Positions 27,001 to 33,000 of a stretch of DNA of 37,089 nucleotides are shown in pieces (within the stretch, counting starts at the first letter, position 1; the number at the start of each line of letters is the position of its first letter). A program made the position numbers. The stretch lies in assembly GCA_004347965.1 (NCBI GenBank), contig QNVF01000009.1, forward strand, positions 1-37,089, read 5' to 3'. The DNA is from Candidatus Nezhaarchaeota archaeon WYZ-LMO8 (GTDB lineage Archaea > Thermoproteota > Methanomethylicia > Nezhaarchaeales > WYZ-LMO8).

Positions 27001-30000
27001 GAGTTAACGTTGGGCGATGTTGCAGTAATAAGAGAACGCAAATAATCAAGGAATAATCCTCTATCGCTAACTTGACTGCATACTCAATTTTTCGACTATC
27101 TTCTTTAAAAGAAAGTCTACATTGACGTTCTTCTTAGCGCTTATAGGCACTAAGTCGCAACTAGGTGCTAAGCTCTTTGCGAGCCTTACTGAGTTCTCAA
27201 GCCTTGAATCACCTATCAAGTCCATCTTATTAATCGCTATAATCAAGGGTTTGTCACCACCTATCTCCGATATTATTGATAAGGAGCCTTTGAGCTTTCT
27301 ATCTATGGTCGAGGGGGCATCAGATGCATCGATGAGTAGCACTATTAAATCAGCCAATCTTAACTCCACTAGCGTGGCATGAAACGCATCAAGTATTAAT
27401 TGCGGCATTTCATCAATAAACCCAAGAGAATCGACAACTATGAAGCTTCTGCCATGAGCGTTAACCCTTCTAGCACATGTCTCAAGTGTAGTGAACGGTC
27501 CAAGCCCCGTTACTTTGCCCTCCTTCGTTAGAAGGTTGAATAGTGTGGTTTTACCGGATTGTGTGTAGCCAGCCAAAGCAACTATGGGGAGGTTTATCTT
27601 CTTACGTTGAAATACTGTCTTCTCTTGCTTCTTCTTCATGCTCTCTAACTTCTCCTCTATTATTTTAATCCTTCGTCGAGCAAAAGATAGGTAAGCTTTG
27701 TATGGATAGCCTCCAAGCGATCCAAAACCCATTTTTTCACTACCAAAACCTTTCAATCTTACAAGTTCTCGTGCCCACGGCAAGGTGTACCTTAGTCTCG
27801 CAAGCTCTATCTGAAGCTTTGCTTCAGATGTTGAAGCTCTTTTGTCAAAGACATTTAAGATTAAGAGGACTCTATCTAAGATGTCTACTTCAAGGCCTAG
27901 ATCTCTCTGCAATCTAAAGTATTGCCCAGGCTTTAGCTCATTGGCAAAGATCACCGTTTTGATGCCATATTTTCTTAGACTATCTTTAAGCTCTTGAAGC
28001 TTTCCTGGTCCTATTAGGTAGCTTGTGTGGGGTGTCTTCCTTATTTGAATGACTTTATTGACTATCAGGTACCCACTATTTCTTGCCAACTCTTCAATCT
28101 CTTTAAGCCTGAAGTCGTCTTTCATTGAGAAAACTCCAACTATCACTGCCTTCTCCACAACGTCGTCACCTTAAGATCTTGACCCTCTTACCTCTGCAGC
28201 TAGGCTCAATCTCGATTTTACCTCCTTCAAACTTTAAACCAAATTCCTTACCTTCGTAAAGCCAATCTAAGAATACTGCTATGGCAGCTACTTCACTGTG
28301 AGGTTGATTGGTTATGGAGACGTTGTAGTCAGCTACTTCGTAGAAGTACTTGGGTACTTTTGGACCCCCTACAAGTATCAGTAGCTTATCCTTACCTCTA
28401 ATTTCTCCTATAACTTGAGGAAGAGGAATGCCGTACATGGTCAGGTGAACTATGCAGAAACCCTTCATCTTTAGCTCCTTTATCGTACTTGGAACATTTA
28501 CTCCTGTTTTCGCAGCAAAGCTTCCACCAAACGTCTTATTTACTTGATATATTTTCTTCTCTATGTTTTCATCCTTCTCGTCAAACCAGGCTTCATGGGC
28601 TCCAAAGGCTCGAGCTACTAGTGCTAAGTGAGTACTTATTCTCCTATCTCTTACAGGTCTATGACCGTATCTTAACACGATAATCTTTCTCACACTCGTT
28701 GTTAACTGAGTCAGCATTTTTAAACTTGTTAGATCAGTGTAACCTTAGGTGGTAGAACTTCATGGCCTTCATAGCATCAGCGCAGTACAGCGAAGAGTCT
28801 GTAGACGTATTATTGAGACTTATTGCTGTTCTTTCTGGTGAAGATGCTGTTAAGGTAGTTAAGGTGCTTTTAAACGAAAAAGAGGTGAGCGATGAAGTTT
28901 TAGCTGAAAAAACTGGGATGAGACTTAATCAGGTTAGGCGTATTCTGTACGACTTACTGGATAAGCACATAGTTACATATCGAAGAGAAGCTAGTGAGAG
29001 AGGAGGTTACCACCTCTACATATGGTCTTTGAATGGAGAGGGTCTAAGGAGGATGGTGAAGGAAAGGAAGGGGCACGTCCTCAACAGGTTGCGTGAAAGA
29101 CTCCTATACGAACAGCAAAACATGTTTTTTGTGTGCCCTAATGGTTGTAACGGGAGAGTGACCTTTGATAAAGCTATGGATCATCAGTTTAAGTGCTCTA
29201 AGTGTGGTGCCATTCTACAAAGCTTTGATAACTCTAAAATCATTGAGAAGTTGAGGTTAAGAATAGAGTCTCTGGAGAAAGATCCTTGAAGTTAGCATTG
29301 AATATATGTACTTTAAGCTTAAGGTGGTAAGATGATCAGTTAAAATACGTAAGGTTTATCTCGCCTTAAAGATGTAACGCAATTGTGGATTTTTATGAAG
29401 TATATCTTCATTACGGGGGGTGTTTTATCAAGCGTAGGTAAGGGAGCAGTAACAGCTTCTATAGGCAAGATGCTCCAAGTCAGAGGTTTCTCAGTAACAG
29501 CAATAAAAATAGACCCATAGGCCTTATGGCCGGGTAAACATAAACGTTGATGCTGGAACAATGAACCCATAGGCTCTAGGCATACGCTTAGAGCCGGGCA
29601 TATATGCATGGTGAGGTCTTTGTAACAGAAGATGGTGGTGAGGTAGATCTTGATCTCGGTCATTATGAGCGCTTTCTCGATATAGAACTATCGAGGGACA
29701 ACAACATCACAACTGGTCAAGTGTACATGGCGGTGGTGGAGGCTGAGAGGAAGGGTAAGTACCTTGGCAAGTGTGTACAAATAATACCTCACGTAACTGA
29801 TGAAGTGAAGAGGAGGATACGATCCGTTGCTCAAAGAAGCAATGTAGATGTAACACTTGTGGAGTGTGGAGGTACGACAGGAGACATCGAAGGGCTTCCC
29901 TTCCTTGAAGCTATAAGGCAGATGAGGCTTGAGGAAGGCTTTTCAAACACGCTTTTCGTGCATGTTGCGTTAGTACCAATACTTGAAGTGACTGGAGAGT

Positions 30001-33000
30001 TCAAGACAAAGCCCCTTCAACATAGCGTGCAAGAGCTAAGGCGCATCGGTATACAGCCAGACATTATAGTGGCAAGGTGTAAACAGCAGCTTGATGAAGA
30101 TTCAAAAAAGAAGATAGCGCTTTATAGTAACGTCCCCGAGGAAGCGGTTTTCACATCTTACGACGTCGAATGCATATATGAACTGCCAATAGTACTAGAC
30201 GAACAGGGAATGGGCGACTACATATGTAAACGGTTAATGCTAAATGCTTCTAAAGCGAATTGGTCCTCATGGAGAGAGATAGTTAGAAGGCACAAGTTCT
30301 TTAGGTATGAAGTTGATGTCTGCATGTGTGGGAAGTACACAAAGTTAAAGGACTCCTACATAAGCATAATAGAAGCTCTAAAGCATGCAGGAGCTTTCCT
30401 TGAAACAAAGGTCAACATGATTTGGCTCGAAGCTACACAGCTTGAATGCGATAAGGGAATGCCTGAGGAGTATCAGAAGACTCTGAGCTATTGTGATGGC
30501 ATAGTGGTTCTACCAGGTTTCGGTGCACGAGGAGCTCAAGGAAAGATGACCGTCATCGAGTATGCTAGGAAGAACAAGATCCCGTTCTTGGGAATATGCT
30601 TTGGAATGCAATTAGCCGTTGTAGAGTTCGCAAGGAATGTGGTGGGTCTCAAAGATGCAAATACCACTGAGCTTGACCCTTCTACAAACCACCCAGTAGT
30701 AGACCTGCTGCCGGAGCAACACTATGTTAAGGAAATGGGAGGTACGATGAGACTGGGTGCTCAAGCTACTGTTCTTGAACCAGGGACGAAGGTCTATGAG
30801 CTCTATGGAAGACCTATAATATTTGAGAGACATAGACACAGGTATGAAGTAAACCCTGCTTACTGGTCATTGCTTCAGAGCTATGGTATGATTTTCTCAG
30901 GTTATAGCGTTGATAAGCGAAGAGTAGAATTCATAGAGCTCAAGGATCATCCATTTTTCATAGCTACTCAGGCACATCCAGAATTTAAGTCGAGACCTAA
31001 TAGACCGTCGCCTCTATACTACGGCTTCTTAAAGGCTTGTCTAGAGTACAAGCTAAAGAAGTCGATGGCCTCTAATAGCTAATACGAACCCTTGAGAGAA
31101 GAGTAAGCTCTCTCTATCCTGGTTATAAATCTTCTAGCTGCTTCCTCAGGGTTTGACGATCTTGTTATCGCTGAGCCAACAATTACTATCTTGCAACCTC
31201 TCTTAACTAGTTCATCCACGTGTTCGAGCCTTACACCACCTGCTACGGCTACTGGAACCTTTACGCTGTTCACTATTTCCTCTAAGAGCTCCATTTTCTT
31301 TGTCACATCTCTCTCCCTCATCTGCACACTTATACCCATATGGACGCAAATTATGTCGCATCCAAGTCTCTCTACTTCCTTTGCTCTAGATACGGGGTCC
31401 GGCACATTTATGAGGTCGCACATGATCTTGACGTTGTACTTTCGAGCAGCACCAACAGCGTCCTTGATAGTATAGTCATCAGTGGCGCCTAGCACTGTAA
31501 CTATGTCCGCTCCAGCTTCAGCAGCTAACTCAACTTCAAGCCAGCCAGTGTCAAACGTCTTTAAGTCGGCAACTATAGTAGCGTAGGGAAACCTTCTTCT
31601 AAACTCCCTTACTGCCTCTAAGCCAGCAGACTTTATGAGTGGTGTTCCAACTTCAAGAATCTCAGCTCCTCCTTTGTAGCATGCTTCAGCTATGCTTAGA
31701 CCATCCTTCAAGTATCTTTCATCTATCGCTACTTGAAGCTTAGGTCCTTTGTAAAGTGGTTCTAAGCCTAATTGCTGAAGTTTCTTGTCCATAGGTATTC
31801 CATTATAGTTCCAGCCTCTAATCATGTAGTAAGCGTCGAGCAGCCTCGTTAAATCAACTATTTCTCCTTTTGCAGCTCCTTCCTTCAATCCCTCGCTTAA
31901 GAACCTAGGAGGTAGAGTGTCGTGTGATCTATTGAACCCCTCCCTAACGTTAAACAGCCTTTCTAAGTTGTATATTCTCTCTCCTATCTTATAGAACTCT
32001 TCTTCATCAACGTAGAAACCTGTCGCCGTTGTTAATAGCCTTGCGTAATGCGTTGCCTCATAGGCTAATGTCGAGAATAAGGCGAGCATGGTGTACTTGC
32101 ACACCACTAAAGAGTCTATTACAGCTGAGACATCTTGCAATCTCTTAACGAGCTCGGCTTTACCTTCATAGGAGAGGGGGTCTATGTACCTTGGTATGCC
32201 CAGTATCTCACTCATCACTATGTAAGCTCTCAAGTGGCATCCCCCTCTATTGGATGTTGCGTAAGCCAAGGCCATGCCCTTTGCCCCTCGAGGATCGTAA
32301 GCCGGCAGCTCCAATCCTTTCACGTGAGCAGCTATACCCTCAGCACCTATCATCTTCGCTATTCGATCAACTCCCTCACTTGCAATTCTTCCTAGACCCC
32401 TCTTGCAGGCTGTGTCAACGATAAGCTTTAACAGTACGTCAGCATTACCAAAGCTTAGCTTTAAATTTACATCGCCAAGCCCTCTTAAAAGCCCCTTCTC
32501 ATAGCACTCCATTAAGAATCCTATAGTGTTTCCAATTGATATGGTGTCGAGACCTAGCTTGTTGCATAAGTCATTTGCTCGTGCTATGACGTTTATATCT
32601 GATATACCACAGTTAGGTCCCAAGGCCCATACGCTTTCATACTCAGGCCCTGAAGATACTACTTCCTCCTCTCCAACCTTGTATTTTATTGAGCGAGCGC
32701 AAGCTATCGGACATCCATAGCATGCGGTTCTTCTTACCAGCATGGTTTCAGTAATTCTCTCCCCACAAACCTCCTCTGCTTTATCGAAGAAACCTCGTGT
32801 AAAGTTATAGGATGGAAGAACTCCTGCCTTATTCATCAAGTGAACCAGAAACGCTGTGCCATAGCGTCCAAGGCTATCTCCAGTAATTGGGTTCCCTCTT
32901 AAGACCTCAAGTGTCTTCTTAACCTCTTCATTGAATGCTCTCGGGTTTGCAACCTTCACTTCACCGGTGCCCTTGACTGCTATGGCCTTTAACTTTTTAG

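Follow-up and report, generated by a model that had tools for sequence, protein, structure and literature searches.

The CTP synthase gene pyrG of this hot-spring archaeon (Candidatus Nezhaarchaeota archaeon WYZ-LMO8; genome G000) is made up of three exons separated by two very short inserts, and it is very probably transcribed into a pre-mRNA with two endonuclease-type introns, which would be cut by the tRNA-splicing endonuclease EndA and the exons joined by RtcB. In the window, i.e. the whole 37,089-nucleotide stretch of DNA that was analysed, all parts of the gene lie on the plus strand. Exon 1 (29395–29518; 124 nt) supplies 41 codons and the T that begins a Tyr codon; after it come intron 1 (29519–29537; 19 nt), micro-exon 2 (29538–29570; 33 nt), which holds AC, 10 codons and T and encodes the peptide (Y)INVDAGTMNP(Y), intron 2 (29571–29601; 31 nt), and exon 3 (29602–31082; 1481 nt including the stop), which holds AT of a Tyr codon, 492 codons and the stop. 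These splice coordinates were set by the rule that each cut falls after the second bulge base, and the exact joins can slide because insert 2 has CATA, and insert 1 has A, at each of its two ends. The coordinates and lengths given in a first-pass annotation of this DNA, and its statement that three frames carry consecutive N-terminal pieces of CTP synthase, both proved exact.

When left unjoined, the three exons are in different frames and encode consecutive parts of the CTP synthase N-terminus, with exon 1 matching positions 1–40 of the Pfam CTP_synth_N profile (E 6.5e-15) and exon 3 matching positions 54–265 together with GATase. Exon 3 alone also matches the NCBIfam PyrG/CTP synthase equivalogs from profile position 57 to the end, with 675–685 bits and above the cut-offs. 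Excision of both inserts fills Pfam CTP_synth_N positions 41–53, these 13 positions being Y, the 10 codons, Y and M, and joining of the exons by script gave 1638 nt, or 545 codons and a stop, with no internal stops and with the peptide ...DPYINVDAGTMNPYMHGE... across both joins. The joined product is thus predicted to be a full-length glutamine-hydrolysing CTP synthase, with N-terminal synthase and class-I glutamine amidotransferase domains. The ATG at 29395 corresponds to the conserved MKYIF start in nine of the ten rows of family f1 (Candidatus Nezhaarchaeales in the genome titles), with the G008 row starting at KYIF. Gene callers truncate pyrG and miss 53 codons, including the P-loop, and because such genes are truncated, metabolic reconstructions from metagenome-assembled genomes can miscall essential genes as broken or absent.

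Both inserts share a fold in which a 4-bp helix, ACCC/GGGU(C), lies between 3-nt bulges AUA and A(A/G/U)A on opposite strands. Bulge-helix-bulge core 1 (29513–29538, plus strand) is formed of ACCC (29513–16), bulge AUA (29517–19), hairpin GGCC-UUAU-GGCC (29520–31), GGGU (29532–35) and bulge AAA (29536–38), while core 2 (29565–29602, plus strand) is formed of ACCC (29565–68), bulge AUA (29569–71), a 10-bp hairpin with loop AUAC (29572–95), GGGC (29596–99) with an A-C mismatch, and bulge AUA (29600–02). Both cores were recovered by RNAfold and, without a prior, by RNAalifold, and the alignments agree with the first-pass description of two inserts after ACCC-AT|A with a 4-bp helix, 3-nt bulges and a hairpin. 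The GGGC mismatch of insert 2, which had been flagged as a weakness, is real and occurs in two of the 10 genomes (G000 and G005). RNAfold of 29495–29625 gave a z-score of −3.62, with none of 200 shuffles as stable. RNAalifold also drew a 3-bp hairpin at the intron 1 3' splice site, together with a long-range helix between exons 1 and 3, both of which were set aside as they lie in conserved codons with few independent changes. At E values up to 1, Rfam returned no match in 29350–29700.

Outer helices flanking the bulges, which had previously gone unscored, were sought at both introns and were absent in the alignments of 11 and 10 sequences. At most there is one closing pair beside the bulge, which for intron 1 is a G-C at the 3' bulge (11/11 rows) and for intron 2 an A-U (6/10). 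The motif is therefore of the relaxed type and not the canonical hBHBh' form. Under lax rules, a scan of both strands of the 1.35-Mb genome gave 37,997 bulge-helix-bulge-like sites, and because such motifs are common the argument draws its weight from the restored frame, the conservation, the covariation and the RNA joint, and not from the fold alone.

The inner helix of both inserts is kept by compensatory change, which bears out the covarying hairpins claimed for the family. The intron 1 fold has 97.3% of cells paired (11 sequences) compared with ≤52% when the partners are slid, and the intron 2 fold 94.0% (10 sequences) compared with ≤49%. Three pairs of the intron 1 hairpin are changed on both sides, with the observed covariation score reached by 0 of 500 shuffles, and two pairs of the intron 2 hairpin, with 13 of 500 shuffles reaching the score; these shuffle controls overstate the support, because the 10 genomes are kin. 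In the central 4-bp helix 95.5% (intron 1, 11 sequences) and 95.0% (intron 2, 10 sequences) of cells are paired, and the exon bases of the helix (GAC CCA U and AAC CCA U) are invariant, including synonymous positions, in 11/11 and 10/10 rows, respectively. This helix never covaries, with three pairs invariant and the A-U pair lost in 2/11 rows at intron 1 and 2/10 at intron 2, and it speaks neither for nor against the fold because coding also constrains its exon strand.

Both inserts are present in all ten family f1 genomes, where intron 1 ranges from 19 to 27 nt and intron 2 from 30 to 33 nt, covering all three classes modulo 3. The micro-exon is exactly 33 nt in every one and its peptide is identical throughout, with seven variable sites that are all third codon positions and all synonymous. 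The frame is restored in 10/10 genomes solely by cuts after the second bulge base or by sequence-equivalent slides. The previously noted spacing of 86–93 nt between the flanking peptides was reproduced as 36 plus 50 to 57 nt; the accompanying claim of exactly 36 nt at all other loci is not general, since locus L120, of a distant lineage outside the family, has a 21-nt insert at site 1, and ten genomes of three other families have an insert at a third pyrG site, in the P-loop codons.

The assembly of G000 is metagenome-style, in 78 contigs (93.4% complete), and annotation pipelines would call the 492-codon ORF alone, which might suggest that the inserts are lesions of a decaying gene or assembly errors. 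We regard this as scarcely credible. The same architecture recurs in all ten family genomes with synonymous-only changes in the micro-exon and compensatory changes in the hairpins, this pyrG is the single copy found in the genome, and contigs from the independent DNA runs X10 (29490–29642) and X13 (29300–29772) contain both inserts with 0 differences.

Evidence for removal of intron 2 came from metatranscriptome run X15, in which exons 2 and 3 are contiguous in a single contig (record 23; depth 7.48), with exactly 31 nt skipped. The joint runs from 29567–71 to 29599–603 (29567->29599), and as four letters fit either side, a join of 29570|29602 also fits. The left side of this contig and exon 2 start at precisely the same base, 29538. 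A match in a second X15 contig (record 24) also starts at 29599, preceded by five unmatched letters. The exon 2–exon 3 joint is absent from the contigs of DNA runs X1, X10 and X13. Record 23 is 87% identical to the window, compared with 82–91% for same-genus genomes and ≤78% for every intron-less lineage tested, and the variant letters of the RNA contigs match genome G006 at eight of ten listed sites, which suggests that record 23 derives from a same-genus relative. The RNA evidence consists of assembled contigs of a relative and not of G000. In the search output the record 23 joint is labelled 'between: not known', and DNA may be present in an RNA library. No X15 contig joins exon 1 to exon 2, and by depth arithmetic the X15 contigs have no cover on 29515–29537 or 29572–29598, an absence that is not evidence in itself. 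Whereas the first-pass annotation drew on no RNA data, the intron 2 joint is now seen in this one relative's contig; removal of intron 1 is a prediction. Other joints returned by the search of RNA and DNA runs (skips of 38, 41 and 127–878 nt, some with letters replaced) belong to other organisms' pyrG or to repeats and were set aside.

An in-frame UAG opens both introns (CCA U|AG), formed from the last exon base and the first two intron bases, and because it arises at each 5' splice site, translation of unspliced pyrG RNA would halt at once. The bypass element of gene 60 in phage T4 has a stop codon and a hairpin after its take-off codon, and the UAG directly after a Pro codon and the stable hairpin at each pyrG insert superficially recall this arrangement. 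Ribosome bypass or frameshifting over both inserts in the manner of gene 60, with no RNA splicing, is nevertheless very improbable. The DNA holds no Tyr codon at either join, Tyr arising solely when T is brought to AC or AT (U|AC at intron 1 and U|AU at intron 2), and no landing codon matching CCA precedes the resuming frame. As the ten genomes include inserts of every length class modulo 3, a different recoding event would be needed per species. Furthermore, bypassing would give no function to the ACCC/GGGU helix or to the pair of 3-nt bulges, and the record 23 RNA contig lacks the 31 nt.

Splicing of the pre-mRNA by EndA and RtcB is consistent with the enzymes encoded in the genome. There are two EndA paralogs, one of 185 aa that is catalytic-like and matches the C-terminal (catalytic) half of the two-unit EndA model, and one of 178 aa that matches the N-terminal half of that model and beta-subunit models and is structural-like. 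RtcB is also encoded, and ARAGORN predicted introns in 16 of 40 tRNA genes. From these sequences, EndA of G000 is predicted to be of the two-subunit catalytic/structural form that accepts relaxed motifs, and may assemble as a heterotetramer. We propose that pyrG is transcribed as a pre-mRNA with two independent relaxed bulge-helix-bulge motifs, in each of which the exon ACCC (Asp/Asn and Pro codons) would pair with GGGU/C, the final four helix bases of the intron, with a 3-nt bulge per strand and the GC-rich hairpin as inner helix. The two-subunit endonuclease would cut after the second base of each bulge, and ligation of the exons by RtcB would then restore both Tyr codons (U|AC and U|AU) and yield one continuous CTP synthase frame of 545 codons.

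Excision from the RNA by some other nuclease and ligase pair is improbable. The outer helix of a canonical substrate is missing, the central helix of intron 2 has a mismatch in G000, and cleavage by EndA is itself something that we infer, all of which would leave room for such a pair. Against this, the motif matches known EndA substrates exactly in its geometry (4-bp helix, two 3-nt bulges and frame-restoring cuts), both EndA subunits and RtcB are encoded, relaxed motifs are known substrates of two-subunit EndA according to the available portions of PMC2738675 and PMC5829648, and the precedent of cbf5 uses EndA (PMC2738675, in part).

We found no report, as far as open-access text shows, of an archaeal protein gene with the pyrG layout of two introns around an 11-codon exon, in agreement with the earlier statement that nothing comparable was in print. 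The same literature contained no report of a bulge-helix-bulge intron in pyrG or CTP synthase, of a Nezhaarchaeal intron or of a Methanomethylicia bulge-helix-bulge, and cbf5 was the only precedent found for an endonuclease-type intron in an archaeal protein gene. The cbf5 pre-mRNA intron is reportedly the subject of papers by Watanabe in 2002 and Yoshinari in 2006. As stated in 2020 in the portion available of PMC7714728, cbf5 was still the only archaeal protein gene with a demonstrated intron of this type, a position that it has occupied for over two decades. In the accessible part of Yokobori 2009 (PMC2738675), hetero-oligomeric EndA cuts the cbf5 intron of Crenarchaeota between bulge residues two and three, most of the introns examined are of the relaxed form, the intron lies between the first and second codon letter, as do both pyrG introns, and its gain and loss are lineage-specific, a further likeness to pyrG. 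Unlike cbf5, pyrG is a metabolic enzyme gene, of Candidatus Nezhaarchaeales, with two introns and a 33-nt exon between them in place of one intron, and its splicing is predicted here from sequence and an RNA contig. In G000, cbf5 itself showed no split in its TruB_N part, which is contained in a single 269-aa frame.

Marck and Grosjean in 2003 and Fujishima in 2010 are said to have described non-canonical and multiple introns in tRNA genes of archaea. Such introns are also covered in the accessible part of PMC3241643. They resemble those of pyrG in motif, enzymes, small size, the occurrence of several per gene and the idea of spread to similar sites, whereas the pyrG host is an mRNA, in which the exon strand of the helix is codons, and therefore the cut must also preserve the reading frame. 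The HVO_1309 mRNA of Haloferax volcanii has a BHB intron in its 5' UTR that was confirmed as an EndA substrate in vitro (PMC7714728, available portion). It shares with pyrG, where EndA would be the cutter, the use of an mRNA as substrate, but its intron is in an untranslated leader and its host is a euryarchaeon, while the pyrG introns lie within codons. The HAC1/XBP1 mRNA undergoes unconventional splicing by IRE1 and tRNA ligase or RtcB, and is likewise cut at stem-loop sites by an endonuclease, with the exons joined by a tRNA-type ligase and the frame changed; in contrast to pyrG, this is a regulated event of a eukaryotic system with an unrelated nuclease.

The case of pyrG, a housekeeping enzyme gene whose layout is conserved across a family, indicates that several introns are possible in archaeal mRNAs, that exons can be tiny and that codon choice can be held by splicing structure. 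With the two introns in one phase and 33 nt in the micro-exon, a direct exon 1–exon 3 join would also keep the frame, so that in principle exon skipping, and with it alternative splicing in an archaeon, could occur. The introns are also alike in exon context (RACCCAU|AYAU), ends (AGGC...GCCGGGyA) and codon phase, as if one had been copied from the other. Active gain of short endonuclease-type introns by mRNAs of this archaeal group, with certain target sequences preferred, is a tentative and rather doubtful reading. The likeness of the two pyrG introns, the position of the L120 intron exactly at site 1, the third pyrG site in other families and the further genes of G000 that are, or probably are, split are in line with gain at preferred targets.

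Given the third pyrG site in sister families, the separate gain of an intron at site 1 in a distant lineage and other split genes, this lineage offers a natural system for studying gain and loss of introns spliced by protein enzymes. A genome-wide motif scan returned 1,993 mostly spurious ORF-restoring candidates under a lax filter and 35 under a strict filter, and follow-up for split genes covered four plus-strand candidates. In support of the splicing proposed for pyrG, the aIF2-gamma gene of G000 is split in like manner (GTP_EFTU 4–80 and 85–187), as is an IF-2B-family gene (profile 2–114 and 117–280), and an aIF5B-like gene and rpS5 are probably split as well.

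No single frame reads the CTP synthase gene pyrG at 29395–31082 of the window; three-frame translation placed the 5' piece in frame 1 (MKYIF...AIKIDP, then TAG), a middle piece bounded by stops in frame 2 (INVDAGTMNP) and the 3' piece in frame 3 (MHGEVFV... up to the stop at 31082). When 29519–29537 (19 nt) and 29571–29601 (31 nt) were removed by script, exon 1 (29395–29518), a micro-exon (29538–29570) and exon 3 (29602–31082) joined into a frame of 1638 nt that runs uninterrupted through 545 codons to its stop, the peptide across the joins reading ...DPYINVDAGTMNPYMHGE..., as the first-pass annotation had proposed. 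That annotation had also noted that the Pfam match to CTP_synth_N in the called ORF starts only at profile position 54; the profile matched exon 1 at positions 1–40 and exon 3 at 54–265, and the 13 absent positions correspond exactly to the micro-exon together with both restored Tyr codons. Exon 3 has a Pfam GATase domain as well and on its own matched the NCBIfam PyrG equivalogs at 675–685 bits from profile position 57, while a profile search of the whole G000 assembly, the genome of this contig (1.35 Mb, 78 contigs, 93.4% complete), found no second pyrG. At both 5' splice sites an in-frame UAG arises (CCA U|AG; 29516–29521 and 29568–29573), in all ten genomes of family f1 (Candidatus Nezhaarchaeales, including G000) and in the more distant locus L120, so that translation of unspliced pyrG RNA would end at the intron. 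Directly 5' of pyrG lies a TFE (TFIIE-alpha-like) transcription factor gene (28762–29289, +).

Both inserts follow one layout, which reads 5' to 3' as exon ACCC, a 3-nt bulge AUA, a hairpin, GGGU or GGGC pairing to ACCC, and a second 3-nt bulge, AAA or AUA. Insert 1 has the hairpin GGCC-UUAU-GGCC and GGGU, and insert 2 a 10-bp stem with loop AUAC and GGGC; if each bulge is cut behind its second base, the joins that restore the pyrG frame result. RNAfold on 29495–29625 recovered helix, bulge and hairpin for insert 1 and, for insert 2, the hairpin (-42.9 kcal/mol, z = -3.62, with 0 of 200 shuffles folding as well), and RNAalifold predicted both complete cores unprompted from the ten f1 genomes, which bears out the bulged ACCC/GGGU(C) helix first suggested for these inserts. 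Since a lax scan of the G000 genome returned 37,997 motif-like sites, the fold alone is unconvincing. This geometry is that of archaeal splicing endonuclease substrates, including the cut position in cbf5, a known archaeal mRNA with a bulge-helix-bulge (BHB) intron (PMC2738675). Outer helices, which belong to the canonical motif, were searched for at both inserts across f1 and are absent, and the motif is therefore of the relaxed kind; the 3' bulge of insert 1 is closed by a single invariant G-C pair, and the closing pair at the same place in insert 2 is A-U in six of the ten genomes. RNAalifold further predicted a 12-bp, G-U-rich helix between exon 1 and exon 3 (29479–29490 with 29613–29626) within which the micro-exon and its two introns would lie, with both-sided changes in one pair only and with both strands made of conserved codons.

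We searched 61 genomes of the class with a pyrG profile and obtained matches in 59, of which the ten f1 genomes were broken at both sites, 39 from other families were unbroken and ten from three other families had a different break. Each of the nine fetched f1 relatives carried both inserts, with intron 1 measuring 19–27 nt and intron 2 30–33 nt across the ten genomes and all three length classes modulo 3 present. The micro-exon is 33 nt in every case and its peptide identical in all ten, its seven variable sites each falling on a third codon position, and the helix bases on the exon side are invariant, synonymous positions included. For intron 1, 97.3% of cells were paired (slid controls ≤52%), both-sided changes occurred in three pairs (G-C to A-U, C-G to U-A and others) and the covariation score was reached by none of 500 shuffles; for intron 2, 94.0% were paired (slid controls ≤49%), both-sided changes occurred in two pairs and 13 of 500 shuffles reached the score, these shuffle and slid controls overstating independence because the genomes are kin. 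The earlier observation that all ten f1 loci keep both inserts with covarying hairpins was confirmed. The central helix is uninformative, as it shows no covariation and some rows lack its A-U pair (2 of 11 for intron 1 and 2 of 10 for intron 2). Ribosomal bypass or frameshifting over both inserts is highly improbable, given that neither join has a Tyr codon on the DNA, a landing codon is absent and the length classes of the inserts vary among species.

Evidence from RNA consists of assembled contigs rather than reads, and RNA libraries can hold DNA. In the metatranscriptome run X15 one contig joins 29567 to 29599 and so leaves out 31 nt (tool label 'between: not known'), and because four letters fit either side, 29570|29602 is allowed. 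Its left side of 30 letters starts exactly where exon 2 does, at 29538, as checked against the depth table, and the match of a second RNA contig also starts at 29599, preceded by five unmatched letters. The 31-nt joint was absent from three DNA runs (X1, X10 and X13), and DNA contigs of two runs not flagged as a possible source carried both inserts with 0 differences. Identity of the joined contig to the window was 87%, compared with 82–91% for same-genus genomes and ≤78% for every intron-less lineage over the same stretch, and the variant letters of the X15 RNA contigs agreed with the genome G006 at eight of ten listed sites. We interpret the joined contig as derived from spliced RNA of a relative in the same genus; among these contigs no join across intron 1 was seen. 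That pyrG is instead a pseudogene or an assembly error hardly deserves consideration, since the inserts are conserved, change is synonymous only, independent DNA contigs carry the inserts and the gene is single-copy.

Two paralogs of the tRNA-splicing endonuclease EndA are encoded by G000. The 185-aa protein corresponds in alignment to the C-terminal, catalytic half of the two-unit EndA model and, read by eye, has Tyr, His and Lys where they would be expected, and the 178-aa protein aligns to the N-terminal half of that model and to beta-subunit models; from these alignments the pair is predicted to be the two-subunit form, which is known to accept relaxed motifs (PMC2738675; PMC5829648). RtcB, the proposed ligase, is also encoded, and of the 40 tRNA genes ARAGORN predicted 16 to contain introns, which lie at several positions; a few of the predictions are implausibly long, and two (875 nt and 963 nt) are seemingly spurious. 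Removal of the inserts by a nuclease other than EndA is unlikely, and nothing calls for one.

In families f4, f7 and f8, ten genomes (G015, G018, G021, G033, G023, G029, G031, G027, G025 and G037; loci L042–L051) have a third insertion site, in the P-loop codons (..GKG|V..), where an insert of this kind, 21–28 nt long, is laid out as GUGGGGAA|A-hairpin-CCCYAG|AGG with helix GGGG/CCCY and bulges AAA and AGA/AAA; depending on the genome, the insert either keeps the frame but contains a stop or shifts the frame. A survey of species-representative genomes gave 80 pyrG loci, 78 of them evaluable: 68 without an insert, six two-intron, three of the P-loop type and one, L120, with site 1 only. Within L120:1427–1478 (also L141), a 21-nt insert lies exactly at site 1, GACCCAU|AGGCUG..CAGCCGGGGAA|AC, with none at site 2. 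On a quick, midpoint-rooted FastTree PyrG tree of 118 rows, a kind of tree that does not establish the order of events, the two-intron genes cluster in a single clade (support 100), and f2 and f3, of the same order and without inserts, belong to the larger group around it, at a weakly placed fork. L120 lies far from that clade, among Terraquivivens-type and Bathyarchaeia-labelled rows, and site 1 has therefore been hit at least twice; its insert seems to be an independent gain at that position.

Among known introns the nearest counterpart is that of crenarchaeal cbf5, which shares motif class, cut rule, codon phase and enzyme kind with the pyrG introns (PMC2738675), and by this analogy the splicing mechanism would be the known one. 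The novel features are the host gene and its lineage, the presence of two introns in one gene, the 33-nt exon and the recurrent pattern of gain. A 2020 paper named cbf5 as the sole other archaeal mRNA with a reported BHB intron, besides its own 5' UTR case (PMC7714728). In open-access full text we found nothing that links introns of this type to pyrG or CTP synthase, and nothing on introns in Nezhaarchaeota or Methanomethylicia, in line with the first-pass annotation, which had found no other report of an archaeal protein gene with more than one endonuclease-type intron.

Scanning the genome under strict criteria, with plus-strand candidates followed up and checked against Pfam, revealed further split genes in G000. 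Inserts of the same kind interrupt aIF2-gamma (32 nt, C77:23751–23782, L138; GTP_EFTU 4–80 and 85–187) and an IF-2B-family gene (27 nt, C35:6124–6150, L140; profile 2–114 and 117–280), and in both the profile positions run on across the gap. An aIF5B-like GTPase (33 nt, C77:21331–21363, L138; downstream piece from profile position 60) and ribosomal protein S5 (29 nt, C72:142–170, L139; downstream piece from position 17) are probably split likewise, these cases being weaker because their upstream pieces had no Pfam match. The TruB_N part of cbf5 is unbroken in G000. On the opposite strand beside pyrG, at 31079–33583 (-), an 834-aa ORF comprises a complete aldehyde ferredoxin oxidoreductase (AFOR_N and AFOR_C) and a C-terminal OMPdecase/HUMPS-family domain (residues 614–819); if that domain is a hexulose-phosphate synthase, the ORF would be a formaldehyde-handling fusion.
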